A stretch of DNA of 64,000 nt from Candidatus Omnitrophota bacterium (lineage in GTDB: Bacteria; Omnitrophota; Gorgyraeia; Gygaellales; JBFMHM01), in the NCBI GenBank assembly GCA_040753015.1, contig JBFMHM010000002.1, forward strand, positions 36,319 to 100,318, in the 5' to 3' direction. The notes below the pieces were generated by a model, which was given only the letters and a program-made list of their open reading frames with translations, made no database searches and was not told the origin of the DNA. The translations under genes were made by a program, and so were the position numbers. The stretch's first letter is position 1. Each line of letters starts with the position of its first letter. This document shows, one piece after another, positions 429 through 41,147 of this stretch.

Positions 429-1535
429 TTATCCGGAGCTTATGACATCAATAATCCACGAAGCACCAGCCCTCCTAGGAAAACGCTCAATAAGTTTATA
501 ATCTACGCTGCATGATTTTTCCATCCATTGTTTTAAATCATTACGAGTAAAGTAATTAATAATAGGCGTATGTAGAAAATCAAAAGAATTTACGTGAAGA
601 TAATGAAAGCTATATCCTTCATATTGACTTAAGGGTAAACTATCCGCAACTCTATTTAATTTAATAACACGAAGAAATTTTCCTATCAAAGCTAAAACAT
701 AGCGAGGAAGTGTAACAATCGTTGCCACATGCCAAATCAACTTTATAGGTAACCAGCTGCAAAACATTCTTATTGCTTGTATAACATGCGTAACCACCGA
801 AACATTATAAGTCCACGCAAACACTCTCCCGCCAGGTTTCGCCATAGAACAAAGAGAAATAAACCCCTTATACGGATCAGGGAGATGTTGAAGTACGCCT
901 ATACAAATTGCAAGATCAAATTGTTTCGCCGTAATAGGTAAGTTAAAAATATCAGTCTGCACACATAAAACTCTTTCGTCAAAGTTATATTTTTCGTAAG
1001 CAAGCTCTATAGCTTCACTAAGATCAAAACAAACAATTTTTTTAATGCCGACATCGAGAAATAACCCTGTAAATCTGCCCTGTCCTGCTCCAGCATCAAT
1101 AATAGATTTTTCTGCGTATTCATTTGTATCAAGAAGCCCACCGGTAAGACGTAAAAATTCAGCTTCATCATAAGTTGTCATATTTTGCGCATCATATTTT
1201 TTCCACTGAAAAGCGTAGTAGCTTGCTGTTTTTGCCTTTCGAGAAAAAACAACAGAGTACAATAAATTATCAAGTTTTTTAAAATATTGCTCTGGTAACT
1301 TACTACTATAAATACTAATCCAATTTTTTAATTTATCCGAATCTATTACAGTGGCAAGAAGCTCCGGAGAGAGCATCCTTGGGACTCCGTTCATTAAAGG
1401 AAATAAGTGTTCCTGATTAGAACAACAAAAAATACCATCACGCAAATGAAACGCTTCGGATTTAAATACTTTAAGCGTGAGCAATTGCGAACATTGAGGG
1501 CATATAAAATAATCACTATATTTTTCGTGCATCAA
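429..1535 (-). CDS. Class I SAM-dependent methyltransferase with N-terminal Cys-rich (zinc-ribbon-like) extension
   Basis: Gly-rich SAM motif DAGAGQGRFTGLF followed by acidic FDLSE. N-terminal CPQC...CCSNQEH cysteine cluster. 4-nt overlap with upstream AsnB gene. Confidence 0.7.
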   Translation of the reverse strand: MMHEKYSDYFICPQCSQLLTLKVFKSEAFHLRDGIFCCSNQEHLFPLMNGVPRMLSPELLATVIDSDKLKNWISIYSSKLPEQYFKKLDNLLYSVVFSRKAKTASYYAFQWKKYDAQNMTTYDEAEFLRLTGGLLDTNEYAEKSIIDAGAGQGRFTGLFLDVGIKKIVCFDLSEAIELAYEKYNFDERVLCVQTDIFNLPITAKQFDLAICIGVLQHLPDPYKGFISLCSMAKPGGRVFAWTYNVSVVTHVIQAIRMFCSWLPIKLIWHVATIVTLPRYVLALIGKFLRVIKLNRVADSLPLSQYEGYSFHYLHVNSFDFLHTPIINYFTRNDLKQWMEKSCSVDYKLIERFPRRAGASWIIDVISSG

Positions 1536-3451
1536 GCATACTCCAAATTGCCATAATTGTTAACATCAGAAATATTATTATTTAACAAAAGTTCTTCGTG
1601 CCATATTATTAAGGACACCACCGCGGACACCTGTCTACCTCTATTAATTCTTCCATTACAATGATCTCGCCAATATTCCAAAACCTTATCGCCATTTAAC
1701 CCAATATCGCAGAGTTTATCTCTATCTAAAAGCTTATTCACTTGCTCCTTGAATTCACCTCTGAACCATTGATCTATTGGATATACAAAGCCACGCTTTG
1801 GAGCATTTCGTATGCTCTTAGGAATACGATTTACTAAAGCCTTTCTAATAAGCGGCTTTGTCTGATTCTTTGAAAATTTAATGTTTGGCGATAGTTTCAA
1901 AGAAAAATCATAAAAATCATTATCAAGAAACGGCACCCTCATTTCTACGCCATAAGCCATAGACGCCGCATCAAACCCAGCCAAAACATTTGACTGCATA
2001 AATGTATTAAAATCAATCCATAAAAGACGTTCTTCACCCTGAGGCTCTCTAAGATGGTCTATGTTTTTTAAAATATCCTCAAGACCAAAAGATGGTTTCT
2101 TTCCAAGTAAGCTCTCTTTTTCAAAATCATTAAAAATCTCCTTATATTTCAAATGTCCTAAGAAGGGTTCATAATCCGCACCATAGAGAAAACGGCGAAT
2201 TTTGAAATCAAAACTCATATTCTTATCTGAATAAGAAACTTTATCTATCAAATATTTTAGGACATTTTTAAAAAACCTGGGTAATTTCCTATACTGTTTA
2301 GCATAATAGTATGCATTTAAAGTAGGATATCCGGCAAACAACTCATCTCCTCCGGATCCAACAAGAATGACTTTATGACCTTCTTTTTTTGAAAACTGAC
2401 TGACAAGAGCAACAAGGCCAACCCCCCAGTCACCTATTGGTTCACCATAATTGCCAAGAATAAATCGCATTTGCTCCCAGAGATCTTTTGGTGTCATCAA
2501 TTTAGTCATGACTCTTGTATTAGAATAACGAGCCATTTCGACAGCTAAGCCAGACTCATCAAAAGATGGTTCATCAAATTGGAGGGAAAAACTTAAAGGC
2601 TTTTTTCCAAGTTCTTGAGCCGAATAAGACAAAATAGAACAAGAATCAAACCCCCCACTCAAAGATATGCCGACTGGCACATCTGAACGAAATTGTCTTT
2701 CAAGCGATTGTTTCATGTATTTATCAAAAAGTCCCAGCGCCTCGTTGAAGTTGGTAATTTCAGGCTTCCACTGAGGCGACCAATAACGGACAACTTCTTT
2801 TTTATTTCTTTTTAGACGTATAAAATAAGCTGGACGTAGTTTTTCAACCCCTTCTATCATGGACCATGGAGCGGGTAAAGAATATTGAGACAAGTATAAT
2901 TCCATAGCCGGTTGACTTATTTTTTTACTAGTCAAACCCAATCTTATCAATGCACCTAATTCTGAACTAAAATAAACACTATTTTCTTTTTCAACAATGT
3001 ATATGGGCTTAATACCGAAGCGATCCCGCGCTAAAACAAGCTCCTCTCGCTCTGGACAATAAGCAGCAAAAGCAAACATACCGTTAAATCGTGGTATGGC
3101 CTTTTCTGCTCCCCATTTAGAAATAGCTGTTATAAGCACTTCCGTGTCTGACTCTGTGTTAAACTGACACCCTTCAGATCTAAGTTCATCCCTTAACTCA
3201 ATATAATTATAAATTTCACCGTTAAAAATAACCACCCAGCGTCGCTTAGCATCCCACATTGGTTGATTACCGGCTTTCAAATCTATAATAGAAAGCCTTG
3301 TATGAACCAATAAAAGTTCTCTCTTGTCAGGCAAGATAGTTTTAAATTCTCCGTCTCCATCAGGGCCTCTATGCTTCAAAAGATTCTTTGCCCTAGTAGT
3401 AAGATCTGGATTAATTTTTTTGTCTGAAATGATTCCAAAAATTCCGCACAT
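1532..3451 (-). CDS. Asparagine synthetase B-like glutamine amidotransferase (class II GATase + PP-loop ATP pyrophosphatase), paralog 1 of 4
   Basis: N-terminal MCGIFGI (Cys2 nucleophile), SGGFDS PP-loop motif, ~640 aa typical AsnB length. Confidence 0.85.
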   Translation of the reverse strand: MCGIFGIISDKKINPDLTTRAKNLLKHRGPDGDGEFKTILPDKRELLLVHTRLSIIDLKAGNQPMWDAKRRWVVIFNGEIYNYIELRDELRSEGCQFNTESDTEVLITAISKWGAEKAIPRFNGMFAFAAYCPEREELVLARDRFGIKPIYIVEKENSVYFSSELGALIRLGLTSKKISQPAMELYLSQYSLPAPWSMIEGVEKLRPAYFIRLKRNKKEVVRYWSPQWKPEITNFNEALGLFDKYMKQSLERQFRSDVPVGISLSGGFDSCSILSYSAQELGKKPLSFSLQFDEPSFDESGLAVEMARYSNTRVMTKLMTPKDLWEQMRFILGNYGEPIGDWGVGLVALVSQFSKKEGHKVILVGSGGDELFAGYPTLNAYYYAKQYRKLPRFFKNVLKYLIDKVSYSDKNMSFDFKIRRFLYGADYEPFLGHLKYKEIFNDFEKESLLGKKPSFGLEDILKNIDHLREPQGEERLLWIDFNTFMQSNVLAGFDAASMAYGVEMRVPFLDNDFYDFSLKLSPNIKFSKNQTKPLIRKALVNRIPKSIRNAPKRGFVYPIDQWFRGEFKEQVNKLLDRDKLCDIGLNGDKVLEYWRDHCNGRINRGRQVSAVVSLIIWHEELLLNNNISDVNNYGNLEYA

Positions 3452-3466
3452 AAATGACCTATTTAG

Positions 3467-4465
3467 TTATTTATTATAGTGTCGCCTTGTACTAAGATTT
3501 AAAGTACTTCTTCCATACCCCATACCCTCTTGCATGTCAAAAAACATCGCAAAAAAGATAGATTGAATACCTATAGAAACAAAAAGCGAACATATAACGG
3601 TAGTTCCTGCAGATGGTATGATATTATTGAAAAACTTCATAAATAAAATATAAGAACCTATGCCTAACCCTGTTAAACAAAAAATCATGCCAAAAAAGAA
3701 CAGAAACACTAATGGATGAAAATTTGAAAAAATATATTTGTAAAACATCCTATAGAAAAAATTTCTAAAAAGCATCGGAGAAACACTTAAGGCATACGAA
3801 AAACCTTTTATTTGAGATTGCCTCTCGTTAGGTAAATATATAGCACGCCGTGGTACATCAATAACCCTAAAACCTTCGATATTAAAACGCATCAAAAAAT
3901 CCATTGGATAGCCATATTTTTTCCATGCCTTATCCCAATCTATGGCTAAGAGCGCTTGTTTATTTATAGCCGTATATCCATCTACCACATCAAAAATATG
4001 ATAATATCCTGACGAAATTTTAGTCATCAAAGAAATTAGAGTATTTCCGAAAAGCCGTATTTTTGGCATATCTTCAAATGCATTACCTTTTACCATAAAA
4101 CGATTTCCTTTTACATAGTCAGCACAATCATCAACAATTGGATCTAAAAATCTAGATAATTCATCAAGTGGCATTTGATTATCACCACCTACAACAACCA
4201 CAATATCAAAATTTTCTTTTATTGCTGCTTTATAACCAGTTATAATAGCTGCTCCTGGACCCTGATTAACGCTATGTTTTATTAATTGAATTCTTGAATC
4301 GCTTTTTGCGCATTGCATTATTACGGCATTTTGATTATCAGGGCTCTTATCATCAACAACATAAACACTATCAATAACACTAGGCATACTTTCTAATGTT
4401 GGTTTTATCAATTTTTCTTCTTTGTAAGCAGGAATAACCAAGGCTATTCTTTTATCTCTATACAT
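3467..4465 (-). CDS. Family 2 glycosyltransferase with C-terminal transmembrane segments
   Basis: IALVIPAYKEE ... VVDDKSPDN (GT2 DxD region). Hydrophobic C-terminal third. Start moved to internal Met14 (ATG at 4463-4465 preceded by GGAGCG), which gives an 8-nt overlap instead of the 47-nt overlap of the longest ORF. Confidence 0.7.
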   Translation of the reverse strand: MYRDKRIALVIPAYKEEKLIKPTLESMPSVIDSVYVVDDKSPDNQNAVIMQCAKSDSRIQLIKHSVNQGPGAAIITGYKAAIKENFDIVVVVGGDNQMPLDELSRFLDPIVDDCADYVKGNRFMVKGNAFEDMPKIRLFGNTLISLMTKISSGYYHIFDVVDGYTAINKQALLAIDWDKAWKKYGYPMDFLMRFNIEGFRVIDVPRRAIYLPNERQSQIKGFSYALSVSPMLFRNFFYRMFYKYIFSNFHPLVFLFFFGMIFCLTGLGIGSYILFMKFFNNIIPSAGTTVICSLFVSIGIQSIFFAMFFDMQEGMGYGRSTLNLSTRRHYNK

Positions 4466-5579
4466 TTCGCTCCTTATTTTTAAAAAATTCGATAACATAG
4501 GCAATTATATAATCGTGTTGTTCTTTATCCATCTCTGGAAAAATTGGTAAAGATAATATTTTTTTTGCCTTATTGCACGAAACAGGAAAATCTGCTTCTT
4601 TTAATTTAAGATATTCATATGCTGGTTGCACTGGTAACGGAATAGGATAATGAATCCCAGTAGAAATACCTTTTTCTAAAAGATACTTTCTTAGTTCTTC
4701 GCGGTAACGCGTTTCTACTACATAAAGATGATATGCGCTTTTAAGTCCTTCCGGTTCTTTATAAATTTTCAAATCGCCAATACCATTTAATCGTTGAGAA
4801 TAGATATCGGCCAATTCCCGCCTTGATTGATTCCAGCCTCGTAAAAATGGTAATTTTACAGCAAGTATAGCTCCTTGAATCTCATCCATCCGCATATTAT
4901 AACCCTCAAAATCATGAATATACTTACCGCCTCTTCCATGGTTTCTAAGTTTTGCAACGTATTCAGCTATTATTGAATTATTTGTAGCAACTGCTCCAGC
5001 ATCGCCAAATGCTCCTAAATTTTTCCCCGGGAAAAAACTATATGTAGCAATATCTACCATTCCTGCAATACTCTTTCCATTAATCTCGGCTCCATGCGCT
5101 TGAGCGCAGTCTGCCACAACTCTTAAATTGTATTTTTCTGCTATTTTATTTAAACTTTTAATATCTACTGGTAAGCCATAAAGACATACAGGCAATAAAA
5201 CCTTAGTTTTATCGCTAATCTTTGATAAAACATCTTCCGGAGAAATATTGTTAGTTTCTGGGTCGACATCTGCAAAAACAACCCGTGCACCCGTCATTGT
5301 AATGGCTTCGGATGTTGCTATAAAGCTATTTGCTGCAGTAATAACTTCGTCACCGTAACCAACATTTAAAGCTTTTAACGCCAAATAGATAGCATCTGTT
5401 CCATTTGCACAACCAATGACATGTTGTACATTTAAATATTTGCTGAAAGCCTCTTCAAATATTTTTACATGCCGACCCTGAATAAACTCTACGTTATTTA
5501 TACACTCAGCTATCGCAGAATCAATTTGCATTTTAATTTTATTATATTGTATTTTTAAATCAACAAATGGAATCCTCAT
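4458..5579 (-). CDS. DegT/DnrJ/EryC1/StrS-family PLP-dependent sugar aminotransferase (ArnB/WecE/WbpE-like)
   Basis: MRIPFVDLKIQY...QGRHVKIFEEAFSKYLNVQHVIGCANGTDAIYLALKAL...DEVITAANSFIATSEAI. This is the characteristic family N-terminus and length (373 aa). Confidence 0.85.
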   Translation of the reverse strand: MRIPFVDLKIQYNKIKMQIDSAIAECINNVEFIQGRHVKIFEEAFSKYLNVQHVIGCANGTDAIYLALKALNVGYGDEVITAANSFIATSEAITMTGARVVFADVDPETNNISPEDVLSKISDKTKVLLPVCLYGLPVDIKSLNKIAEKYNLRVVADCAQAHGAEINGKSIAGMVDIATYSFFPGKNLGAFGDAGAVATNNSIIAEYVAKLRNHGRGGKYIHDFEGYNMRMDEIQGAILAVKLPFLRGWNQSRRELADIYSQRLNGIGDLKIYKEPEGLKSAYHLYVVETRYREELRKYLLEKGISTGIHYPIPLPVQPAYEYLKLKEADFPVSCNKAKKILSLPIFPEMDKEQHDYIIAYVIEFFKNKERNV

Positions 5580-7198
5580 GTTTTTATTTTTATTTTATTG
5601 CAATAATAAAATGTTATAAATTTATCAATTGAAAAATTTATAAGCCTAATTAATGTTAAAAACCCTAAGAAATAAAAAATCACCATAAAAGGATCAATAG
5701 GAATACGCATTCTGTATGTTCCGGGAACGAATAACATAGGTATGATTAAATTATAAATAATAATCCCGCTAAAAATAAACCATACAAGCTTGTTAGGGCT
5801 CTTAAAAATATTAATAATTGAAACACAAAACCCAATAATCAAAAATAAGAAGAATAGTATTTTTTTATTATCGCTCATAATAAAATAATAATATGTGCTA
5901 GCTATGTATGCATAAATTTTGGTAAAAATATTTGGTTTCGCGTTAAACTTAACGTATCTTTTAGTTGGATCGTGCACCCAAACATCGAGAACATCTCTAT
6001 GTGCTTTTTCAGCATCTAGTAAGCCCTTATAAGGATATTTACCCGTATTATATGACCTTAACCCCGGTATATATAAAACTGTGGGCTCTACGACTAGTTG
6101 CATTAGAACTACATACCTAAAGGTATTTTTAAAATATTCAAAAGGGTACTTTTTTATGCAATCTAAAGAAGCTCGAAGAAGAACATCATCTACATCTGCT
6201 GCTAGTTTAATTTTCTTATCTTGGAAATAAGAACAAAAAGCAGGAATATGACGCTTCCATGCATCAGGACCGAAATAATAATCATAATATTTCCATGATT
6301 TTCTTTGTTCGAGCCCCTCTTTTTCTTTGCGAAAAGCAATATTCCTCTCAAATGATTCCTTGATATCTTTAATATAAACACTATCGTAATCTACTATTTT
6401 TTCATATTCCACAACACGTGAATACAAATTAAGCCCAACACATTTAGTCATAGCAAAAAATCCATTATGTTTAGAATTGTAAATCATCCATGGCAATATA
6501 CTACTTAGATAAAAAACTGCTCCTATCAAAAATAAAAAAGTTGATTTAAGCTTATTAGCATTTTTTTTGTTGAGTAAAAAGATAGTGAATAGAACACAAA
6601 GAAATACAACTAATAGTTGTGCTATAGGCCTAATATTAGTTGCAAAACCAGTAAAAACAAAGGAAAATAATAAAAATTTATACTTCTTTGTTTCAGCATA
6701 TTGCATATAAAAATAAATGATAAAAGCTAAAATGAATGAATAAAAAAGTTCAGTCATAACATAATTTGCATATGACCAGATTTGCAAAGAAAAACAAGAT
6801 AATAAACCGCATAATAAACTTTTTAGCCTATCCTTAAAAAGCAAGAAAGAAATAAAATATACCATTAAAATTATAATTACAGCCATTAAATGCTGCGTAA
6901 AACGTAAAGCAAAAGTAAAATTTTCGGGAAAAATTTTAAGCAAACCTACTAAAAGAAGCGGATAACCGGGTGTTCGATTAATGCTTAACGAGGAAAAATC
7001 AAAAAAATCTTTTATTCGAACAGCAGCTACAACATAAGTACCTGAATCAGAAAAAACCATAATAGTAGTTCCTAAAAAAATAATAGTTTGAGTTAAAATT
7101 GCAACCGCGAGTAAAAAATAGAAATGTTGAAACCCAGAATTACACCAATTCTCTAGACTAATAACTATAGAGTTTATATATTTTTTAAAGTTGATCAT
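5576..7198 (-). CDS. Polytopic membrane protein, GT-C-fold glycosyltransferase-like (ArnT/PMT-like); function not established
   Basis: 540 aa with >10 predicted TM helices and a short periplasmic-loop acidic motif (FSDSGTY) near the N-terminus. Sits between an ArnB-like aminotransferase and an ArnC-like GT2. Confidence 0.4.
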   Translation of the reverse strand: MINFKKYINSIVISLENWCNSGFQHFYFLLAVAILTQTIIFLGTTIMVFSDSGTYVVAAVRIKDFFDFSSLSINRTPGYPLLLVGLLKIFPENFTFALRFTQHLMAVIIILMVYFISFLLFKDRLKSLLCGLLSCFSLQIWSYANYVMTELFYSFILAFIIYFYMQYAETKKYKFLLFSFVFTGFATNIRPIAQLLVVFLCVLFTIFLLNKKNANKLKSTFLFLIGAVFYLSSILPWMIYNSKHNGFFAMTKCVGLNLYSRVVEYEKIVDYDSVYIKDIKESFERNIAFRKEKEGLEQRKSWKYYDYYFGPDAWKRHIPAFCSYFQDKKIKLAADVDDVLLRASLDCIKKYPFEYFKNTFRYVVLMQLVVEPTVLYIPGLRSYNTGKYPYKGLLDAEKAHRDVLDVWVHDPTKRYVKFNAKPNIFTKIYAYIASTYYYFIMSDNKKILFFLFLIIGFCVSIINIFKSPNKLVWFIFSGIIIYNLIIPMLFVPGTYRMRIPIDPFMVIFYFLGFLTLIRLINFSIDKFITFYYCNKIKIKT

Positions 7199-8624: not shown

Positions 8625-9502
8625 TATTTATTATTTTTATATATCTTTCTTAATTGTTCGGCTAGTAATCCCATCGAAAAAATAGGAACAAAACTAGCAA
8701 CACAGATCCCAGAAACTATATTAATAACTTGTGAGTTTATATAATAGCTATTCAGTATCCATAAAAACAAACCAGAAATAGCATTAAAAATTGCTATAAG
8801 AAGAAATAGCTTTAAGGGGTTGTAGTAAATAAAAGCTTCTATTATTATTTGAGCCGCCCTAAGAGTATCTTTAAAATGTCTAACTTTTGATTTCCCTTCC
8901 CTCTTAAAATAATCAATCGGAATATATTTTACGTAAAAATGATTTAATAAAAATATTAGCGTTAAAGTGGTTGTAAAAGAAAATCCTGTGCATAAAGAAT
9001 CCTGGAATGTTAATACAATTTCTTTATTAAATATCCTTAATCCCGAATTAACATCGGGTATCTTTCGACCGCAAGCATATTCAGTTAAATGTTTAAACAA
9101 TATCCTAGCAGGCCTTTTTAGCATTCCTTTATTGTATTCTCGACCTTGCCTTGCCCCAACAACCATATGATACTGAGGGTAATACTTATACAACTCTTTG
9201 ATGCTTTCAGCAGGATAAGATCCATCGCCATCAATTATGGCTATACAGCTATATTTTGCAGCGATAATTCCATTAAATAAAGCTTTGCCATAACCGAGAT
9301 TTTCTACATGATCGATTACGGAGAAATTTTTTAATTTTAGCTCTTGTAATATCTTGACTGTATTATCGGTTGAGCCATCATTCACAACAATAAGTTCATA
9401 TTCATTAAAGTCTTTAAATTCAGTTGCAATATCGGTTAAAGTTTTTGAAATAGATTTTTCTTCATTATAAACAGGAACGATTATACTAATCATTTTCACC
9501 AC
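8624..9502 (-). CDS. GT2 polyprenyl-phosphate sugar transferase-like (ArnC/DPM1/GtrB-like) with C-terminal TM helices
   Basis: ISIIVPVYNEEKSI ... ELIVVNDGSTDNT. Two to three C-terminal hydrophobic helices. Confidence 0.7.
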   Translation of the reverse strand: MVKMISIIVPVYNEEKSISKTLTDIATEFKDFNEYELIVVNDGSTDNTVKILQELKLKNFSVIDHVENLGYGKALFNGIIAAKYSCIAIIDGDGSYPAESIKELYKYYPQYHMVVGARQGREYNKGMLKRPARILFKHLTEYACGRKIPDVNSGLRIFNKEIVLTFQDSLCTGFSFTTTLTLIFLLNHFYVKYIPIDYFKREGKSKVRHFKDTLRAAQIIIEAFIYYNPLKLFLLIAIFNAISGLFLWILNSYYINSQVINIVSGICVASFVPIFSMGLLAEQLRKIYKNNK

Positions 9503-10899: not shown

Positions 10900-10904
10900 T
10901 TAAC

Positions 10905-11951: not shown

Positions 11952-11970
11952 ATTAAATCCGTATTCATAT

Positions 11971-13719: not shown

Positions 13720-13729
13720 ACAATACCCC

Positions 13730-15058: not shown

Positions 15059-15060
15059 AT

Positions 15061-21490: not shown

Positions 21491-21494
21491 ATGT

Positions 21495-22913: not shown

Positions 22914-22949
22914 AATTAGATTAATCCTAGAATTAATTGATATAGTATT

Positions 22950-24317: not shown

Positions 24318-24335
24318 ATTTTCTTATAAACTATA

Positions 24336-25139: not shown

Positions 25140-25177
25140 ATTTATTTATATGGTATAATTTTGCAAAAAAATTAATA

Positions 25178-30480: not shown

Positions 30481-30495
30481 TATTAGTTAAACTCC

Positions 30496-31443: not shown

Positions 31444-31452
31444 CCCCTATTT

Positions 31453-32772: not shown

Positions 32773-32776
32773 ATTT

Positions 32777-34219: not shown

Positions 34220-35370
34220 ATCTTATAGTTACATAAAGCAGTTTTAAAAGTATTTGTGATATATCTAAGTTCTCGCTCTTTTATCTCGTAATAAATAGGT
34301 AAAGAAATTGTCATATCTTCTCCTAATATAGCATTAGGAAAATATGCTAAGTTAAAATTGTAGCGTTTTTTATATACATCGAGTCGCGGAATGGCATGTG
34401 TACCAGGCCTTGTCCAAACACCTTTATTGGCCAAATAAGTCATAATACTATTCCTATAATTTTTATTCTTAATTTTCAACCTCACAACATACGATTGATA
34501 AGTATGGCTTGCTTTATCTGACACATAAGGAAGTTCTAATTCATCAATATCTCTTAAGAAAAAATTATAACAGTCACCTATATATTTTCTTTTCTCTAGT
34601 AGCTTATTGAGCTTTAATAATTGTGCTATACCTACTGCACCTTGAATATCAGAAAGCCTAAGATTATAACCAATATTTGATATCGCACTCATCTCATATG
34701 GATAATTCATCACTCTTGGGCCGGGTTCAGGGCCTCGCGTACCATGATTTCTTAGGCTATTAATAATATCTGCGTAACAACGATTGTTAGTTGTTACCAT
34801 GCCACCTTCACCAGTAGTAACGATCTTACGCGGATGAAAAGAAAAACATCCAATATCCCCAATTCCGCCAACTGGTTTTCCGTTATATTTACAACCTATA
34901 GCACAAGCAGCATCCTCAATTATTTTTAAATTATACTTTTTTGCAATAGCAATAATTTTATCCATCTCAACGCTAAGACCAAAAAGATGAACTACAATAA
35001 TTGCTTTAGTTTTAGTAGTAATCGCCTTTTCGATTTCGTTGATATCAATATTATAAGTTCGAATATCAATATCTACGAATTTCACAGTTGCGCCAACATA
35101 TTCAACGCAATTTGCAGTAGAAACCCAAGTAAAAGCCGGAACGATAACTTCATCTCCTGGCTTTAATCCTAGCGCTAGACAAGCTAAATGCAATGCTGAA
35201 GTACAAGAATTAATCGCTAAAGAATATTTGACTTCGTGTAATTCAGAAAAACGCCTTTCAAACTCCGCCACCATCGGCCCTTGAGTAACCCAACCACTTT
35301 TAAGACATTTTGAAATAAATCTTATCTCTTCATTATCAAAATATGGTCGTGCTAAAGGAATCTTTTTCAT
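34216..35370 (-). CDS. DegT/DnrJ/EryC1-family PLP-dependent sugar aminotransferase, second copy
   Basis: MKKIPLARPYFDNEEIRFISKCLKSGWVTQGPMVAEFERRFSELHEVKYSLAINSCTSALHLA...GDEVIVPAFTWVSTAN. Confidence 0.85.
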   Translation of the reverse strand: MKKIPLARPYFDNEEIRFISKCLKSGWVTQGPMVAEFERRFSELHEVKYSLAINSCTSALHLACLALGLKPGDEVIVPAFTWVSTANCVEYVGATVKFVDIDIRTYNIDINEIEKAITTKTKAIIVVHLFGLSVEMDKIIAIAKKYNLKIIEDAACAIGCKYNGKPVGGIGDIGCFSFHPRKIVTTGEGGMVTTNNRCYADIINSLRNHGTRGPEPGPRVMNYPYEMSAISNIGYNLRLSDIQGAVGIAQLLKLNKLLEKRKYIGDCYNFFLRDIDELELPYVSDKASHTYQSYVVRLKIKNKNYRNSIMTYLANKGVWTRPGTHAIPRLDVYKKRYNFNLAYFPNAILGEDMTISLPIYYEIKERELRYITNTFKTALCNYKI

Positions 35371-35448
35371 ATTATAAATGATTATTTTTCAATAATTCGT
35401 AATTTCAGTAAAATCTTCGAAATGATAGTTCATTGTCTGTCTAGCCTA

Positions 35449-36237
35449 TTAAACCTTTTTAAGCGCATAAAATAAATTATAACTATATTGATCAAAACTA
35501 TTATCATTTAATAGCCTTGATACGTTCATAGCGAAACTATTAAATCTTGAATCATGCTTCGGAGATTTTGGAAAAATGGTTAAGGGATAAACAAGCCTCG
35601 AAAGTAACAAATAAAAACCATAATTTTTTATTTCTATAATCCTAAAATATTTTTCTATAAAAGATTTCATTTTTTCTTGATAAAAATTTCTATTATAATT
35701 TACTACTTTAATTTGCGACAAGCCCAAGGTTACCCTTAATCTATTAAGCCTGTTAAGCTCATCTTGAAACCCTTCGCTAAGTAATAGCAAGCCACCTTTT
35801 TTGAGAATGCTATGAATTTGCCTTAAAGCTTTACATTGCATTTCCCAAGAAGGCAAATTGATTAAACATCGCTGTGATATAACGCAATCGAATTTCAATG
35901 AATCTTTAAAAATATTATTTAGATTTGTTACTGAAGAAACAATAAAACTAATATTTTTTATATTATTTGATTGGGCTCTTCTTCTTGCGATTTTAATTAA
36001 ATTGTAAGAATAATCTAATCCAAAAATATGCTTAACTTTTTTAGCATAATTAATTGTGTGAGCCGCATCACCGCATCCTAACTCCAGAACATTAAAATTT
36101 TTTTTAAGATACTTCATAATATTGTCCATTTCTAACTTTGCAAGAAACGGATCTCTAGAAGTAGGAGTTGTTGATTTTAAAAAAGAAAATTTTTCCCCTT
36201 TATTTTCCCAAAATCTTTTTATATCTATTAATTTCAT
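35449..36237 (-). CDS. Class I SAM-dependent methyltransferase (candidate chain-terminating methyltransferase; immediately downstream of wzm-wzt)
   Basis: LELGCGDAAHTINYA...GLDYS SAM-binding motifs. Confidence 0.65.
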   Translation of the reverse strand: MKLIDIKRFWENKGEKFSFLKSTTPTSRDPFLAKLEMDNIMKYLKKNFNVLELGCGDAAHTINYAKKVKHIFGLDYSYNLIKIARRRAQSNNIKNISFIVSSVTNLNNIFKDSLKFDCVISQRCLINLPSWEMQCKALRQIHSILKKGGLLLLSEGFQDELNRLNRLRVTLGLSQIKVVNYNRNFYQEKMKSFIEKYFRIIEIKNYGFYLLLSRLVYPLTIFPKSPKHDSRFNSFAMNVSRLLNDNSFDQYSYNLFYALKKV

Positions 36238-36253
36238 TTTATTTATATATAAA

Positions 36254-37555
36254 CTAAAGGCTAGAGATATGACTTATTTTAATAGGATGCTCAACAATAT
36301 AATTATACTGATATTTGCTACTTTTAATTTTAATACTATAAACTCTATCATGATAATCCAACCACCTGAATTCGCCATTTTTTTCCATCAAAATAAACGC
36401 TGATAATTTATATTCTCCTTGCCCTAACAATAAAGGAGAAAAAATAAATCTAAATTCTCCATTCTCAAATAAGGATTCTTGCCGCTGGCAACCATCGTCC
36501 ATGCTGTTTGGAGTAAAAACTAATAAACCATTACTTGTAAATATTCGACAAGCACCGTGCAGTTTCCAATCAAAATATTTATAGCCCTTATATTTCAAAG
36601 AGATCTCTATGTGCTCCCCGGATAATAATTCATACCGCTCTTTCCCTTTATTGTCGAAAATTTTAAATTCGGTAATAACAGCTTCTTTGCTGCCGTATTT
36701 AAAAAAATCTTGATTATCTTTTAAATCTAAATAACCTCCTTTTTCTCTTAATTCAATAAGATCGCGTGAACAGAAAGAATCATTGTTACCAACCGAGCTC
36801 CTTAAATAAGAATGGCTTTGTTCATTAATATAACGCTGATAGGCTTTAATTACCAAATCTGCAACGTCATTAGCTACGATCATGCCATCATGCAACCATA
36901 TTGCTTTGTTACAAAACATATTAATCATCTCTGTAGAATGACTGACAAATAAAACCGTTGTATCACTTTGACAAATCTGACGAATTTTCGCCAAACACTT
37001 ATTAACAAAAATTGCATCTCCCGCAGACAAGGCTTCATCTATTATTAGAATATCTGGCTCTTGATGAATAGCAAGACTAAAGCTCAACCTAGCTTGCATT
37101 CCTAATGAATATGTTTTGAAGGAATTATCTATATATTTATAAAGACCGCTAAATTCAATTATCTCATCCATCTTTTTATCTATTTCGTCCTTACTCATAC
37201 CTAAACACATTCCACCCATATAAATATTTTCGCGCCCGGAATGCTCGGGATGAAAACCTGTACCTAATTCTAAGATGGCAGATACTTTACCATTTATGGC
37301 TACTTCGCCACTTGTCTTATCAAGCGTACCAGCTAGAATTCTTAATAAAGTGCTCTTGCCTGCGCCATTTCGTCCAATAACACCTATAACTTCTCCGCGT
37401 TTTAATTCAAAATTTATATCACTTAGCGCCCAAAATTCTTGATGATGCCGCTTTCCAGTTAAAATTTCCCAAACCATATCTGATGGTTTTTTGTACATTT
37501 TAAATGCCTTAGAAAGATTGGACGCCTTAATTGCAATATCTGATTTATCGTTCAT
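36254..37555 (-). CDS. wzt: ABC transporter ATP-binding protein, Wzt/TagH type, with ~200-aa C-terminal extension (candidate glycan-terminus-binding domain)
   Basis: Walker A GVIGRNGAGKST, signature YSLGMQARLSFS, Walker B ILIIDEALSAGD. Start set at internal ATG 37553-37555, which forms an ATGA overlap with the wzm stop. Residues ~260-433 form an extra non-ABC domain. Confidence 0.8.
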   Translation of the reverse strand: MNDKSDIAIKASNLSKAFKMYKKPSDMVWEILTGKRHHQEFWALSDINFELKRGEVIGVIGRNGAGKSTLLRILAGTLDKTSGEVAINGKVSAILELGTGFHPEHSGRENIYMGGMCLGMSKDEIDKKMDEIIEFSGLYKYIDNSFKTYSLGMQARLSFSLAIHQEPDILIIDEALSAGDAIFVNKCLAKIRQICQSDTTVLFVSHSTEMINMFCNKAIWLHDGMIVANDVADLVIKAYQRYINEQSHSYLRSSVGNNDSFCSRDLIELREKGGYLDLKDNQDFFKYGSKEAVITEFKIFDNKGKERYELLSGEHIEISLKYKGYKYFDWKLHGACRIFTSNGLLVFTPNSMDDGCQRQESLFENGEFRFIFSPLLLGQGEYKLSAFILMEKNGEFRWLDYHDRVYSIKIKSSKYQYNYIVEHPIKISHISSL

Positions 37556-38388
37556 AATACATCCCCAAAAGAAACCTTTAATTTTCGAAACATTCGATAC
37601 CCTAGGCAAAATATAGTTAAACTTATTACAATAAATGTTACCCACGCCTGATAATGCTCAAATCTACCAAAATAAAACACATCTTGATAGCACCAAACCA
37701 TATAACTAAATGGATTTAAATATACTACTGGCCGAAAAATATTTGGCACCATTTCTGGAAGATAAAATATAGGCATGGCATACATACCAACAACGCAAAA
37801 TACCTGAACAAAATCTTTAATATCACGAAAATATACTCCTATTGATGATAGAATATAAGAAACACCAATCATCGCAAGTATCTGAAATAAGAAAAGCGCG
37901 GGAATCAAAATATACGTCCAAGGTAATAATCCGTTTTTTATTAAAACATATAAAATTAACATCGTGGTATAAATTATCTGTGTCAAAAATGCCGCAATTA
38001 CGCCTTTGACCGGCAAAATTTCAATAGGAAAAATAACTTGTTTAACTAAATTTGCATTACCAACAACTGCCGAAGAAGCCTTGTTCATAGACTCCTGAAA
38101 CGACATCCAAGGGATAAGTCCAGAAAGAATATAGGTTGTATAATCTAATGGCATCTCTATTGTGCCGCCAATCTTTATTTTAAATACAAAAGCAAAAACA
38201 AAAACATATATGCCCATCAAAACCATTGGATGACCGATAACCCAAAACAACCCAAGCACTTGCCCTGCATAACGGTCTTTAATTTCCCGCTTTGCCATCT
38301 CACAAGTAAGCTGACGATACCTAGTTAAAAGCGCGATAATCTCGCGGAATGCCTGAAAGTGATTTTTAAAATTAAACAGAGACTTCAT
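37552..38388 (-). CDS. wzm: ABC-2 type transporter permease, Wzm/TagG type
   Basis: 6-TM ABC-2 permease pattern with N-terminal FQAFREIIALLTRYRQLTCEMAKREIKDRYAGQVLGLFW. Start trimmed to Met28 of the long ORF (ATG 38386-38388) to avoid ~100-nt overlap with AsnB-4. Confidence 0.75.
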   Translation of the reverse strand: MKSLFNFKNHFQAFREIIALLTRYRQLTCEMAKREIKDRYAGQVLGLFWVIGHPMVLMGIYVFVFAFVFKIKIGGTIEMPLDYTTYILSGLIPWMSFQESMNKASSAVVGNANLVKQVIFPIEILPVKGVIAAFLTQIIYTTMLILYVLIKNGLLPWTYILIPALFLFQILAMIGVSYILSSIGVYFRDIKDFVQVFCVVGMYAMPIFYLPEMVPNIFRPVVYLNPFSYMVWCYQDVFYFGRFEHYQAWVTFIVISLTIFCLGYRMFRKLKVSFGDVL

Positions 38389-40312
38389 AACATTCTTTAT
38401 TAAAATTCGGTGTTGTAATCGTTTTTGTCTCATAGCTACCGCAAAGAAAAATCTTACACCACCACTCAAAATTCAACAATGACCAAATAAAAAGACGGCG
38501 GTTTTGTTTTCCTTGTAAATGATCATTAATTAAATTATTGGTTGTTTTGTAATCAAAAAAATTGTATATATTTGCTTTCTTGTCCATAAGCAGTTCTTTT
38601 ACATATTCAACGCTTTCTCCTTTAAACCAACTTGCATCCGGGCCACTAAAACCCTGTTTATATTGATTTGTAATACTGTCTCCACTATACTTCCTAAGGG
38701 ATTTCCGCAGAATAACTTTTCCATCGTTCATCTTCTCAAAATATTTTTCTTTCTTCACAAACTCATCTTCATCAATATCAAGAATACTATTTATATTTTT
38801 AAGTTTTAACTTTACTGGAACTTTTAAACCAAAATCTACCAAATTATTATCTAAAAATGGAACTCGCTCTTCGAGTCCTTGAGCCATGCTCAATTTATCG
38901 CTCAAAATTAATAACCCGTGTAAAAAAGTTTTTGCTTCAAAATACAATGAGTGATTTATGTAATCTTCTGGCTTTTGAGGAACTAGCTTATGACTATTAA
39001 AAACATTCTTAAAAATATCTTCTGTCCAAACACCGTTTACGTCTTGCCAAATTGGCGCAAATAAGCCCTGTAATGTTTTATTCGGAACAAGCCTCTGCCA
39101 ATATTTATAGTAACCCTGCGTATATTCATCGAAGCTTTTTGCTCGTAATGCTTTATAATATCTCCATGGGTACCCTGCAAAAAGTTCATCGCCACCACAT
39201 CCCGAAAGACAAACCTTAACAAATCGAGAAGCAAGCTTTGCTGCATAAAAATTAGGATAACACTGCCCAAGCCGTAAATCTTCTAAAGCCCAAACCAGAT
39301 TCGGAATACAGCGCTTCATATCACCCGACTTTAAAACCATCTCATAATGTTCGGTCTGGTATAGATAAGAAATGTGCTCTGCTTTTTCTCTCTCATCAAA
39401 AGATAATTCTAAACCAGACGCTGACGATAAATCAAAACCAATACAAAAAGTCTTAAAATCCTTAAGATGTTGAGATGCAATTGCAACTATTGAACCCGAA
39501 TCTATACCGCCGCTTAGATAAGAACCCACTTCTACATCACTGACTAATTGTCTCTTTACTGCCTGGTTAAATAATCTATCAACCTCTTCTAAATACTCAT
39601 TTTCCGATTTTATATTTTTTTCTTCTTCAAAATGAAAATCCCAATATTGCTTTTGTTCAGCTTGTATGCACTCCCTTATGTTAATTTTTAAAAAATTCCC
39701 CGGTGGTAAAATTTTTACGCCCTTAAATAATGTTTTATAAGTAAACGTATTTTGAAAAGTAAAATACTCCAACAGAACTTCATGATCTAATTCTCTTTTA
39801 AATTCCGGATGCTCAAAAAAAGCCTTTATTTCTGAAGCAAAAAGTAACACTTTTTCATTTTGCCAGTAATATAAAGGTTTTATCCCATATCGATCTCTTG
39901 CAAAAAATAATTTTCGCTCTATTTTATCCCAGACAGCAAAAGCAAACATACCATTAAAACGCTTAACACAATCTTCTTTCCACTGGGCATATGCATAAAG
40001 CACAACTTCAGAATCTGTGTTAGATTTAAAATAATACCCCAATTTTTCAAGTTCCTTTCTAATTTCCCGAAAATTATAGACCTCGCCATTATATGTAATA
40101 ACAAAACGCTTATCTTCTGTAGCCATCGGCTGGCGGCCTTTAACCGTTAAATCAATGATTGCAAGTCTACGATGTCCCAACCCAACATTCTCATCAATAT
40201 ACAACCCTTCACCGTCTGGCCCGCGATGACGAAGGGCGCTAGTCATTGTTTGCAATATCGAGTTGTATACTTGCTGCCCATTCTTATTAATAATCCCTAC
40301 GATTCCGCACAT
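38372..40312 (-). CDS. Asparagine synthetase B-like amidotransferase, paralog 4
   Basis: MCGIVGII N-terminus, YLSGGIDSGS PP-loop. Confidence 0.85.
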   Translation of the reverse strand: MCGIVGIINKNGQQVYNSILQTMTSALRHRGPDGEGLYIDENVGLGHRRLAIIDLTVKGRQPMATEDKRFVITYNGEVYNFREIRKELEKLGYYFKSNTDSEVVLYAYAQWKEDCVKRFNGMFAFAVWDKIERKLFFARDRYGIKPLYYWQNEKVLLFASEIKAFFEHPEFKRELDHEVLLEYFTFQNTFTYKTLFKGVKILPPGNFLKINIRECIQAEQKQYWDFHFEEEKNIKSENEYLEEVDRLFNQAVKRQLVSDVEVGSYLSGGIDSGSIVAIASQHLKDFKTFCIGFDLSSASGLELSFDEREKAEHISYLYQTEHYEMVLKSGDMKRCIPNLVWALEDLRLGQCYPNFYAAKLASRFVKVCLSGCGGDELFAGYPWRYYKALRAKSFDEYTQGYYKYWQRLVPNKTLQGLFAPIWQDVNGVWTEDIFKNVFNSHKLVPQKPEDYINHSLYFEAKTFLHGLLILSDKLSMAQGLEERVPFLDNNLVDFGLKVPVKLKLKNINSILDIDEDEFVKKEKYFEKMNDGKVILRKSLRKYSGDSITNQYKQGFSGPDASWFKGESVEYVKELLMDKKANIYNFFDYKTTNNLINDHLQGKQNRRLFIWSLLNFEWWCKIFLCGSYETKTITTPNFNKECYEVSV

Positions 40313-40313
40313 T

Positions 40314-41147
40314 TTAATTAAAGGTGTAATGTAAAATATTATTGTTAACTTTTCTAAAAGACTCCCCGCGCGTATGCCCTAACCATTGATCACAAACTAA
40401 ACAAACCTCATCGGGATAATTATTACGAATCTCGCTTAGCCTACGCGAATTCCATATTTCAGAAATACTATAATTCGCTATATTTATATCTTTTTCGGTA
40501 TTCCATACATGATTACATCTTGAAACGCATCCATCAAATGCAATAACCAACGTATCGTGCAACTTCGGGCAAAAATTGCGATTAGAATCTAAAGTCTGCG
40601 AAGACCTGCCAAAAGCGCCATCAATACTATGTTCTTCATACAATCTAACACTATCAAAACCAGCTAAATCTTTTGATTGAATTAAATCATCATAAATATT
40701 TTTAATTGTTTCTTCGCCTTGGACAAATGAAACTTGGGTTATTGGAAAATTATCATCGTTTTTAAATAATAAAAACTTCTTGGCATTTTTATAACCTATA
40801 AGATTATGTACACTAAAAGTTATAAATTCAAAATGAGATAATATTGCTGCAATCCTCTCATTAAAAATAACGCCATTCGTAGAAAAATGCATTTTTAACC
40901 CTTTACTAAAAGCAAAATTAATAATTTCCGTAAAATAAGGATGCAATAACGATTCTCCGCGCCAAAAAGGAATGACTATGGAATTAGGCGAATTGTCATT
41001 AATATCTTCGATTATCTTCTCCCATAGGAAACGACTCATAAACCCCTTATTTTTATCAATATGATTTCGCGGACACATCGAGCAGTCTAGATTACAATCC
41101 AACGAAAGCTCAACAACAATTCTTTTAGGAAATTTACTAATTTTCAT
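40314..41147 (-). CDS. Radical SAM enzyme with C-terminal Cys-rich (SPASM/twitch-like) region
   Basis: CNLDCSMCPRNH cluster motif, GESLL SAM motif. C-terminal CPKLHD...CVSRCNHVW...CLVCDQW cysteines. Confidence 0.65.
   Translation of the reverse strand: MKISKFPKRIVVELSLDCNLDCSMCPRNHIDKNKGFMSRFLWEKIIEDINDNSPNSIVIPFWRGESLLHPYFTEIINFAFSKGLKMHFSTNGVIFNERIAAILSHFEFITFSVHNLIGYKNAKKFLLFKNDDNFPITQVSFVQGEETIKNIYDDLIQSKDLAGFDSVRLYEEHSIDGAFGRSSQTLDSNRNFCPKLHDTLVIAFDGCVSRCNHVWNTEKDINIANYSISEIWNSRRLSEIRNNYPDEVCLVCDQWLGHTRGESFRKVNNNILHYTFN

Follow-up and report, generated by a model that had tools for sequence, protein, structure and literature searches.

A probable cell-surface glycan assembly locus in an Omnitrophota bacterium that couples B12-domain radical SAM enzymes with AsnB-type amidotransferases and Gtr/Arn-like glycosyltransferases

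Several described glycan systems share parts with a gene array that we analysed in a Candidatus Omnitrophota bacterium (GenBank assembly GCA_040753015.1, contig JBFMHM010000002.1, positions 36,319 to 100,318 of the forward strand; this whole stretch of 64,000 nucleotides is called the window, and coordinates below are counted from its first letter). The Wzm/Wzt pathways for O-polysaccharide (O-PS) or S-layer glycans of Escherichia coli O9a, Aquifex aeolicus and Geobacillus stearothermophilus combine the permease Wzm and an ATPase, Wzt, that has a carbohydrate-binding domain with GT4 chain builders and methyltransferases able to cap the chain end. Gtr and Arn systems bring together a GT2 glycosyltransferase of the GtrB/ArnC/DPMS type and a GT-C transferase. 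The Wbp pathway of Pseudomonas aeruginosa O5 uses a GFO/MocA 3-dehydrogenase, a DegT transaminase, a hexapeptide N-acetyltransferase and an AsnB-type amidotransferase (WbpS/WbpG), and the PEP-CTERM/EpsI-type systems described by Haft have AsnB paralogues dedicated to exopolysaccharide (EPS) loci (TIGR03108) and the regulator MarR_EPS (TIGR04176). Likenesses to each of these systems are found in the minus-strand array between positions 2 and 43077, which also encodes four B12-domain radical S-adenosylmethionine (SAM) enzymes (rSAMs). We read the array, with a probability of roughly 60%, as a cell-surface glycan assembly locus organised in four layers, namely a sugar module, chain synthesis and export, branch donors, and tailoring; its interpretation as a glycan locus is in itself sound.

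The locus comprises 35 co-directional, tightly packed genes, with intergenic gaps of at most 78 nt and overlaps at more than half of the junctions. A co-directional array of 41 kb with four AsnB and six rSAM genes appears far denser in these families than genomes usually are. An earlier sequence-only reading had described positions 429 to 41147 as a glycan-decoration locus, and Pfam bears out its four AsnB-type amidotransferases, its GT2, GT4 and GT-C transferases, its two DegT aminotransferases and its Wzm/Wzt exporter, as well as its six rSAM enzymes, four of them of the B12 type (PF02310 and PF04055 both above cut-off in these four, rSAM plus SPASM domains in the other two, and a CxxxCxxC motif in all six). 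It had counted five methyltransferases, of which only four class I enzymes could be found, as relaxed searches of unassigned proteins and N-terminal regions gave no fifth. One of its two carbamoyltransferases lies within that range (11971–13719), whereas the second is a partial open reading frame (ORF) at 2–394, with 30% identity to the first (E 2e-15); similarly, the WbpB/WbpD-like fusion does have its GFO/MocA and hexapeptide domains but is located at 41524–43077, just past 41147. The glycan assignment itself gains from the MarR_EPS regulator, the lack of any free small ORF in the array, the retained glutaminase cysteines and the glycan genes that neighbour homologous cassettes elsewhere. 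Because the carbamoyltransferase ORF at 2–394 is cut by the window edge, the locus extends past the start of the window.

Chain synthesis and export are encoded in the middle of the locus:

26434–27444, minus: class I methyltransferase MT_b (Pfam; 39% identity to MT_c)
27383–28591, minus: weak GT4-like (GT-B) protein (PF00534 E 0.0026 and PF13439 E 0.0082, both below cut-off)
28588–30480, minus: AsnB-type amidotransferase 3 (AsnB3), nearest to the EPS-associated model TIGR03108 (535.5 bits, cut-off 816.9); N-terminus MCG
30496–31443, minus: class I methyltransferase MT_c (Pfam)
31453–32772, minus: GT4 glycosyltransferase a (PF00534, 112.9 bits)
32777–34219, minus: GT4 glycosyltransferase b (PF00534, 35.2 bits, cut-off 26.4)
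34216–35370, minus: DegT sugar aminotransferase b (DegT_b; PF01041, 366.6 bits)
35449–36237, minus: class I methyltransferase MT_d, directly upstream of Wzt (Pfam)
36254–37645, minus: Wzt, ABC ATPase with a C-terminal carbohydrate-binding domain (PF00005, 82.8 bits; PF14524, 65.9 bits)
37552–38469, minus: Wzm, ABC-2 permease with about six transmembrane (TM) segments (PF01061, 46.9 bits)

The genes for Wzm (PF01061) and Wzt (PF00005) are adjacent (36254–38469), and the Wzt_C domain (PF14524) covers Wzt residues 317–444 at more than twice its cut-off of 30.4 bits. A C-terminal carbohydrate-binding domain marks the Wzt subclass that recognises a capped chain end, and MT_d is a candidate for the capping enzyme. 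With the starts as listed, Wzt (GTG) and Wzm (TTG) run into the genes upstream of them by 94 and 98 nt. Translation more plausibly begins at internal Met codons, MNDKSD... for Wzt and MKSLFNF... for Wzm, and the listed Wzt start is probably some 30 codons too far upstream. We know of no Wzm/Wzt system with B12-domain rSAMs, four AsnB paralogues or three GT2/GT-C branch systems. Unlike the described pathways, the window has no identified WecA, WaaL or WbdD-type terminator: no ORF in it matches PF00953, PF02397 or PF04932, the families searched for a WecA/WbaP initiating transferase, a WaaL ligase or an oligosaccharyltransferase. The initiating transferase and ligase genes may lie elsewhere in the genome.

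This absence bears on what the glycan is attached to. The product might be a glycan attached to protein (S-layer, pilin or general O-glycosylation), or else a polymer of the capsule or teichoic kind, and not the O-polysaccharide of lipopolysaccharide (LPS); we regard this alternative as rather unlikely. No WaaL was found in the window, the PMT_2 family to which one GT-C protein belongs takes in protein O-mannosyltransferases, and a Geobacillus S-layer glycan is made with Wzm/Wzt and a methylated cap; in addition, Patescibacteria and DPANN archaea, which do not have LPS, also carry the cassette. On the other hand, Wzm together with a Wzt bearing Wzt_C is best known from O-PS export (PMC9445017). 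A Wzy_C gene (WaaL/PglL family) that adjoins a related Omnitrophota cassette would fit O-PS or protein glycan alike. The acceptor could be LPS, protein or lipid.

The sugar module lies at the upstream end of the locus and, with DegT_b, resembles the Wbp pathway:

38372–40312, minus: AsnB-type amidotransferase 4 (AsnB4), in the conserved nucleotide-sugar module (Pfam)
40314–41147, minus: small rSAM/SPASM-twitch enzyme 2 (SPASM2; PF04055, 30.2 bits, cut-off 29.5; PF13186, 27.3 bits, cut-off 21.5)
41144–41479, minus: MarR-family EPS-associated transcriptional regulator, 111 aa (TIGR04176, 99.6 bits, cut-off 88)
41524–43077, minus: fusion of a WbpB-like GFO/MocA sugar 3-dehydrogenase and a WbpD-like hexapeptide N-acetyltransferase, first gene of the locus (PF01408, PF22725, PF00132)

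Domains of the WbpB, WbpE and WbpD types are all present and co-conserved; on NF040723, the curated model for UDP-GlcNAc 3-dehydrogenase, the score is 163 bits, below the cut-off of 450. The locus differs from the Wbp pathway in that dehydrogenase and acetyltransferase are fused and in that a small SPASM rSAM has been added, the latter being conserved in three of the related loci surveyed below (L049, L057 and L060). In these, AsnB4 orthologues of 56–68% identity and SPASM2 relatives of 31–34% identity lie beside MocA and LbH genes, so that MocA, LbH, in some cases DegT, small SPASM rSAM and AsnB4 make up a conserved module of their own. A 2-epimerase, as in the Wbp pathway, is present in the L071 version of the cassette. 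WbpA, the UDP-GlcNAc 6-dehydrogenase, supplies the carboxylate in the Wbp pathway; no UDPG_MGDP_dh domain was found in any ORF of the window. AsnB-type amidation has also been reported for the Wbp/Vim linking-sugar pathway of Porphyromonas gingivalis (PMC7468200).

All four AsnB proteins contain both PF13537 and PF00733 and keep the glutaminase nucleophile Cys in a Met-Cys-Gly N-terminus; in AsnB2 five spurious codons precede the MCG, which is probably the true start. The AsnB paralogues are 30–32% identical to each other and the B12-domain rSAMs 24–28%, and both sets are therefore old, distinct enzymes rather than products of recent amplification. The gene for the helix-turn-helix (HTH) protein (41144–41479) precedes that of the small SPASM enzyme; the protein scores above the cut-off of the curated MarR_EPS model TIGR04176, as in the PEP-CTERM/EpsI-type systems. 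The locus departs from these systems in that the AsnBs score 364–535 bits against the cut-off of 816.9 for the EPS amidotransferase model TIGR03108, and in that the window has no exosortase or PEP-CTERM components.

The same proteins argue against a secreted small molecule, either an aminoglycoside-like oligosaccharide or a ribosomally synthesised and post-translationally modified peptide (RiPP), as the ABC-exported product. Clusters for aminoglycosides or RiPPs do contain rSAM, DegT, carbamoyltransferase, GT4 and AsnB-like enzymes, and there is weak NCBIfam similarity to ApyD, PapB and lasso cyclase. However, the AsnBs keep the glutaminase Cys, which to our knowledge is absent from lasso cyclases, and three GT2 enzymes of polyprenyl-phosphate type accompany three GT-C proteins. 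The sequence-only reading had named a precursor peptide with a RiPP recognition element (RRE) as the finding that would recast the locus as a peptide pathway; every ORF of at least 25 aa lies inside a larger gene, the gaps of the array hold no precursor ORF, and the HTH protein is MarR_EPS and not an RRE. We accordingly rejected the RiPP reading. The aminoglycoside reading was rejected as well, as no 2-deoxy-scyllo-inosose synthase was found in the window and Wzt carries a polysaccharide-binding domain. A small-molecule product is hardly credible.

The remaining layers of the proposed glycan locus, branch donors and tailoring, occupy its downstream half:

2–394, minus: NodU-type carbamoyltransferase 2, N-terminal part, partial at the window edge (PF02543, 26.2 bits, cut-off 24)
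429–1535, minus: class I SAM methyltransferase MT_a with a Trm112-like zinc ribbon at the N-terminus (Pfam Methyltransf_11/23/25; Trm112 on residues 2–58)
1532–3451, minus: AsnB-type glutamine amidotransferase 1 (AsnB1; PF00733, 217.6 bits, and GATase_7; N-terminus MCG)
3467–4504, minus: GT2_a, polyprenyl-phosphate sugar synthase-like (PF00535; C-terminal TM segments 265–321)
4458–5579, minus: DegT/DnrJ/EryC1 sugar aminotransferase a (PF01041, 347.6 bits)
5576–7198, minus: polytopic GT-C glycosyltransferase, PMT_2/ArnT-like (PF13231, 38.7 bits, cut-off 26.1; about nine hydrophobic segments)
7185–8624, minus: B12-binding-domain rSAM enzyme 1 (B12rSAM1; PF04055 and PF02310; CPFKCVFC)
8624–9502, minus: GT2_b, ArnC/GtrB-like polyprenyl-phosphate glycosyltransferase (PDB ArnC 9hwj and GtrB sll0501; two C-terminal TM segments)
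9496–10899, minus: B12rSAM2 (PF02310, 78.1 bits; PF04055, 71.6 bits; CYGRCIFC)
10905–11951, minus: rSAM/SPASM-twitch enzyme 1 (SPASM1; PF04055; PF13186, 21.9 bits, cut-off 21.5; CNLKCDFC)
11971–13719, minus: NodU/CmcH-type carbamoyltransferase (PF16861, 194.4 bits; PF02543, 143.7 bits; NodU model 140 bits, cut-off 1000)
13730–15058, minus: FAD-dependent amine-oxidase/phytoene-desaturase-like oxidoreductase, PRK07233 family (NF005560, 351.3 bits, cut-off 252)
15061–16527, minus: B12rSAM3, with clear orthologues across many phyla (Pfam PF02310 and PF04055)
16524–18473, minus: AsnB-type amidotransferase 2 (AsnB2; PF00733, 298.7 bits; sequence MVVRVMCGICG)
18463–19326, minus: GT2_c, DPMS/ArnC-like polyprenyl-phosphate glycosyltransferase without TM segment (PDB 5mlz DPMS, E 1.3e-17, residues 3–226)
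19326–20660, minus: polytopic membrane protein, 444 aa, putative GT-C-fold glycosyltransferase (49% identity to 22950–24317)
20657–21490, minus: membrane-anchored partner protein, 277 aa, three TM segments and a beta-rich domain (44% identity to 24336–25139)
21495–22913, minus: B12rSAM4, the most divergent (PF04055, 67.8 bits; PF02310, 56.2 bits; CPFNCNYC)
22950–24317, minus: polytopic protein unk455, 455 aa, of a very rare family with a predicted GT-C fold
24336–25139, minus: membrane-anchored partner unk267, 267 aa, with a beta-sandwich domain that may be carbohydrate-binding
25178–26434, minus: unannotated protein with a TM helix at 7–25 and weak SGNH/GDSL similarity (PF00657 E 0.0057, below cut-off)

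The glycosyltransferase set of the locus thus consists of three GT2, two clear GT4 and one weak GT4-like protein, and one PMT_2/GT-C protein. GT2_b matches ArnC (9hwj, residues 2–250) and GtrB (sll0501, residues 5–290) over its full length, and GT2_c matches the dolichol-phosphate mannose synthase (DPMS) of Pyrococcus (5mlz) and ArnC. The top NCBIfam matches of all three are polyprenyl-phosphate sugar synthases below their equivalog cut-offs, those of GT2_a being AglJ, PpgS and DPM. With C-terminal TM helices in GT2_a and GT2_b, the three GT2 enzymes appear, by homology, to be polyprenyl-phosphate sugar synthases of the ArnC, GtrB and DPMS kind.

Six proteins of the locus (19326–21490, 22950–26434 and 27383–28591) have no significant Pfam or NCBIfam match. 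Four of these form two tandem paralogous pairs flanking B12rSAM4, in which a three-TM protein with a beta-rich domain (267 or 277 aa, 44% identical) is followed by a polytopic protein (455 or 444 aa, 49% identical). The polytopic family is very rare, with four matches in a search of 5.8 billion clusters and 11 representatives among 1.84 billion, and a metagenome scan for it gave only two short contigs; the pair and its gene order are kept on two independent contigs (L068 and L069). We suggest that unk455 and its paralogue constitute a rare family with a GT-C glycosyltransferase fold; acidic residues that follow TM1 of unk455 (E30, D38, D64 and D66) are invariant. Three GT2 enzymes of the polyprenyl-phosphate type and three GT-C proteins are therefore the layout expected of three Gtr/Arn-like branch-decoration systems. 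Further likenesses are the DegT aminotransferase that adjoins GT2_a and the PMT_2 protein, as ArnB is found near ArnC and ArnT, and the two GtrA genes that flank the cassette in a Parcubacteria locus (L004). The cassette nevertheless differs from Gtr and Arn in adding AsnB and one or two B12-domain rSAMs, which those systems are not known to have, and in that two of its GT-C proteins belong to the new family with a separate beta-sandwich partner. No small flippase of the GtrA or ArnE/F type was recognised in the window (no PF04138 or EamA/SMR match).

For the radical SAM enzymes the comparison is with HpnI/HpnJ/HpnK and with GenK, GenD1, AprD4, BtrN, NeoN, DesII and BlsE, known systems in which B12-domain or SPASM/twitch rSAMs act on sugar carbons. 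None of the six rSAM proteins reaches the cut-off of any NCBIfam model. The top matches of the B12-domain enzymes are BchE, HpnJ and ApyD at 95–189 bits (cut-offs 481–750); in particular, BchE scores 95–189 bits against 481.35 and HpnJ 101–185 bits against 577.6, both short of the equivalog cut-off, and methylase-type models also stay below theirs (Sden_1168, 163 bits against 575; TIGR04014, 141 bits against 360). A profile of the B12rSAM3 family (A1), run against solved structures, finds AprD4 first (E 1e-36), followed by QCMT (PDB 9CCB), TokK, OxsB, TsrM and CysS. AprD4 is a sugar diol dehydratase. Its alignment with A1 is confined to the radical SAM core (profile positions 166–398), whereas the Rossmann domains of the cobalamin binders TsrM, CysS, TokK and OxsB align from positions 27–70 onward. 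Because of this alignment to true cobalamin binders, and because several residues of the N-terminal domain are invariant across 29 B12rSAM3 homologues, the family likely has a functional cofactor-binding N-terminal domain. A 2026 review of B12-dependent rSAMs identifies 9CCB as the glutamine C-methyltransferase QCMT, lists AprD4 as not binding cobalamin and counts most characterised members as methylases. Methylation is a possible reaction for the B12-domain enzymes of the locus, as is another radical transformation, because their nearest solved relatives are AprD4, without cobalamin, and QCMT, a B12-dependent C-methylase.

Within the same glycan locus these enzymes may thus not be methyltransferases, and may instead remodel a lipid- or nucleotide-linked sugar by other radical reactions, such as an HpnJ- or OxsB-like ring contraction or rearrangement, an AprD4-like dehydration or deoxygenation, an epimerisation or an oxidation. 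In the hopanoid pathway the GT2 HpnI attaches to a lipid the sugar on which HpnJ then acts, a pairing that resembles the conserved adjacency of GT2 and rSAM genes seen here. This alternative, which we hold to be quite possible if not probable, is favoured in addition by the top curated matches being BchE and HpnJ rather than methylase families, by AprD4 being the best solved relative by E-value, and by the presence of four conventional methyltransferases in the locus. Yet the BchE and HpnJ matches are far below cut-off, the AprD4 match is to the core while the N-terminal domain follows true cobalamin binders, the second-best solved relative is a C-methylase, and methylases predominate in the 2026 review. 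The sequence-only reading had proposed methylases of the GenK/Fom3 type, which, with no NCBIfam cut-off reached, our data neither establish nor exclude. It had also held that BchE-like enzymes with no sugar context would speak against a glycan role; the best curated matches are BchE and HpnJ, below cut-off, but this objection applies only by half because the sugar context is strong.

Another way to read the Hpn likeness is that the cassette modifies a membrane glycolipid head group, in the manner of HpnI/HpnJ/HpnK in the formation of the hopanoid cyclitol ether or of tetraether or ladderane lipid tailoring, and feeds no polymer; on this reading a GT2 would place a sugar on a lipid, to be remodelled by the rSAM and the flavoprotein. 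The top NCBIfam matches include HpnJ, HpnR and a model for a ladderane-associated lipid rSAM, the FAD oxidoreductase is weakly similar to HpnE and phytoene desaturases, and B12rSAM1 and B12rSAM4 have C-terminal hydrophobic segments (residues 447–465 and 425–451), which B12rSAM2 and B12rSAM3 do not. These segments may be membrane anchors and are a weak hint of membrane-proximal action. All of the scores are, however, far below cut-off; the window has no squalene-hopene cyclase or lipid-synthesis genes; the cassette sits among GT4, Wzm/Wzt, DegT and Wbp-type genes here and elsewhere; and its GT-C partners imply onward transfer of the sugar to an acceptor. Head-group modification is very improbable, and membership of the hopanoid pathway itself was rejected, the curated HpnJ cut-off not being reached and hopanoid genes not being found in the window. 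Similarity to the Hpn and aminoglycoside enzymes is at the level of the superfamily (HpnJ 101–185 bits against 578; AprD4 over the core), and the setting differs, as the window has neither hopanoid nor 2-deoxystreptamine genes and is a polymer export locus. HpnI/HpnJ, with a B12-domain enzyme acting on a lipid-attached sugar placed by a neighbouring GT2, and the aminoglycoside enzymes would be the nearest functional analogies, falling short of the curated thresholds for membership.

Evidence that the combination is not peculiar to this genome comes from related loci. B12rSAM3 has 3732 homologues at E ≤ 1e-10, and an NCBI protein from a metagenome-assembled genome (MAG) of Candidatus Omnitrophota, on a 260-kb contig, is 100% identical to it. 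A scan of one genome per species with two peptide patterns from this family gave 61 loci, the gene content of which was taken from plain six-frame ORFs searched with the window proteins. They span Omnitrophota, Elusimicrobiota, Melainabacteria, Patescibacteria, several proteobacterial lineages, Nitrospinota, Planctomycetota, KSB1 and Aminicenantes, and include three DPANN archaeal lineages and a MAG of Methanosarcinales. Of the 61 loci, 30 contain AsnB and 35 contain GT2. Restricting the count to the 42 loci that reach 15 kb leaves 25 with AsnB, 25 with GT2, 34 with one or both of them and 21 with two or more rSAM genes. The nearest AsnB lies within 2 kb in 21/30 loci and the nearest GT2 in 21/34; genes scattered at random over 10 kb to each side would be this close in roughly one case in five. 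In about 36 of 58 loci a polytopic protein (at least 330 aa and at least eight TM segments) lies no further than 8 kb away, frequently as a direct neighbour.

Omnitrophota contigs with orthologues of 55–69% identity (L001–L003, L055, L071 and L072) keep the order GT2, AsnB, (methyltransferase), B12-rSAM, (methyltransferase), FAD oxidoreductase. In L001 and L055 the identities are 59–60% for GT2_c, 48–50% for AsnB2, 55% for B12rSAM3 and 40% for the FAD oxidoreductase, whose orthologues adjoin those of B12rSAM3 in L001, L055, L071 and L072. AsnB2 orthologues that adjoin B12rSAM3 orthologues have 48–51% identity. The MocA/LbH fusion recurs in L071 (fusion, UDP-GlcNAc 2-epimerase, AsnB, GT2, methyltransferase, B12-rSAM, FAD oxidase, B12-rSAM and, where the contig ends, a Wzy_C protein) and in L007 (MocA/LbH, DegT, GT2, B12-rSAM), and Wbp-type genes (MocA/LbH and DegT) lie beside B12rSAM3 homologues in L007, L011, L014, L054 and L057. 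The Parcubacteria locus L004 reads GtrA, AsnB, GtrA, GT2, two methyltransferases, a 561-aa protein without Pfam match and B12-rSAM, with Wzx and Bac_transf nearby; L005 has a minimal set of a 557-aa protein without Pfam match, GT2, B12-rSAM and AsnB. Across homologous cassettes the neighbours are glycosyltransferase, Wzx, Bac_transf, Wzy_C, epimerase and GtrA genes. Both modules, GT2-AsnB-B12-rSAM(-FAD oxidase) and MocA/LbH-(DegT)-SPASM-AsnB, are conserved in other genomes.

Dense clusters occur outside the window as well. Two B12-rSAM and three SPASM genes occur together in Falkowbacteria (L062), and the DPANN contigs carry sets denser than that of the window, with five B12-rSAM, one AsnB, two GT2 and three large polytopic proteins in 18 kb of Woesearchaeota (L056) and three B12-rSAM and four GT2 in Nanoarchaeota (L046), which suggests a role for the cassette in tailoring dolichol-linked sugars in archaea as well. 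In a 69%-identical cassette the second GT2 is followed by a CMP-sugar synthetase-like gene (CTP_transf_3, L072 positions 8854–9570), a hint that the AsnBs may have a sugar of the Kdo or nonulosonic-acid type among their carboxylate substrates. In Magnetospirillum sp. UT-4 (L026, NZ_CACVCG010000013.1), 12 kb contain a methyltransferase, a B12rSAM3 homologue (37%), a SPASM rSAM, a carbamoyltransferase, AsnB and GT4; this is apparently a cultured isolate, because the record is not labelled as a MAG. We tentatively propose that the GT2-AsnB-B12-rSAM cassette, usually with a GT-C protein, may be a widespread, uncharacterised pathway with a cobalamin-dependent radical enzyme that would remodel a polyprenyl-phosphate- or nucleotide-linked amino-uronic sugar before its transfer to a surface glycan.

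From the gene content and domain identities, which are directly observed, we infer the substrates, the order of steps, the side of the membrane and the type of each rSAM reaction as follows. The sugar module (38372–43077 with DegT_b at 34216–35370) would make a 3-acetamido sugar of the 2,3-diamino type, probably a uronic acid, through the WbpB/WbpD-like fusion and DegT; AsnB4 would amidate this sugar or turn it into an acetamidino form, and the small SPASM rSAM might modify it further. In the cytoplasm, the chain would grow on a polyprenyl carrier through the action of the GT4 enzymes, class I methyltransferases and AsnB3 would decorate it, and Wzm/Wzt would export it, the C-terminal domain of Wzt recognising the modified (capped) chain end. 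In parallel, GT2_a, GT2_b and GT2_c would load single sugars onto polyprenyl phosphate as donors for side branches, which the three GT-C proteins (PMT_2 and the two members of the new family with their beta-sandwich partners) would add on the outer face, following Gtr/Arn logic. On these donor sugars AsnB1 and AsnB2 may amidate a carboxylate, the four B12-domain rSAMs may perform radical C-H chemistry, most simply C-methylation, and SPASM1, the flavoprotein and the carbamoyltransferases may introduce further changes.

Several observations weigh against this interpretation. As no rSAM reaches the cut-off of a characterised family, both methylation and cobalamin use are putative, and the polyprenyl-phosphate class of the GT2 enzymes is based on best matches below equivalog cut-offs. 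The structural model of unk455 has a mean pLDDT (predicted local distance difference test) of only 60, and Foldseek finds no significant match for it. Around 40% of the related loci of at least 15 kb show no AsnB, and these loci stem from the peptide patterns of one family and crude six-frame ORFs, with no matched control of random genes. The pathway is also incomplete as seen, because genes for the initiating phosphoglycosyl transferase, a WaaL-type ligase, a GtrA/ArnEF-type flippase and UDP-GlcNAc 6-dehydrogenase were not found in the window.

The minus-strand gene array continues unbroken from the window start to 47927, with a GC content of about 0.30–0.36, and is followed by a rRNA operon (5S, 23S, tRNA-Ala, tRNA-Ile, 16S). 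The glycan locus is co-directional with cvpA, NIF3, dnaG and rpoD (43077–47927); only 2 nt separate the rpoD stop from its first gene, and no terminator-like site was seen between them. Such a fusion of a dnaG-rpoD operon with a surface-glycan locus is unusual. The sole strong promoter-like match on the minus strand (11/12) is at 47982–47954, upstream of cvpA. Promoter- and terminator-like sites in 34000–48600 are no more numerous than in shuffled sequence and so do not mark operon boundaries.

Next to the rRNA operon, the stretch 54866–56337 (plus) has a gene for an AbiEii nucleotidyltransferase toxin (PF08843, 70.6 bits) and, overlapping its upstream end, a 230-aa ORF without Pfam match, possibly an AbiEi antitoxin; the two would possibly form a type IV toxin-antitoxin pair; a second AbiEii gene occurs in the Melainabacteria locus L006 (16872–17663). 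A 1595-aa ORF at 56347–61134 (minus) has no Pfam match at E ≤ 0.001; a 2026 preprint describes many very long proteins in Omnitrophota. The region is also flanked by a short GH18-like protein of 283 aa (53981–54832, plus) and an 893-aa protein with TPR and polysaccharide deacetylase domains (61243–63924, minus), which may serve further envelope or glycan-related functions.

Taken singly, the parts of the locus are familiar: export by Wzm/Wzt, decoration of the Gtr/Arn kind, Wbp sugars and amidation by AsnB (WbpS/WbtH). Described class B rSAMs belong to the chemistry of antibiotics, cofactors, lipids and peptides. The conserved coupling of B12-domain rSAMs to glycan parts appears not to have been described in the literature searched, where queries on rSAMs in O-antigen, EPS, Wzm/Wzt or Omnitrophota contexts returned irrelevant co-mentions and where the 2026 review does not contain the words glycan, polysaccharide or sugar. 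The sequence-only reading had likewise known of no described pattern of this kind, which stands for the literature searched, but the pattern is not unique to the window and recurs in many MAGs; it is widespread in uncultured lineages and appears uncharacterised. If the proposal is true, surface-polysaccharide sugars would be a new and evidently common arena for radical chemistry, providing a new class of substrate for class B rSAMs and a new type of sugar modification that would be common to Omnitrophota, Elusimicrobiota, Melainabacteria, Patescibacteria and DPANN archaea. An orphan and very rare membrane protein family would gain a predicted fold and a likely function from its place in the locus. 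The conserved cassette of three or four genes is small enough for heterologous expression, and Magnetospirillum sp. UT-4 offers a possible experimental handle. The proposal would also predict unknown sugar structures on ultra-small, often host-dependent microbes, in which surface glycans plausibly mediate attachment.

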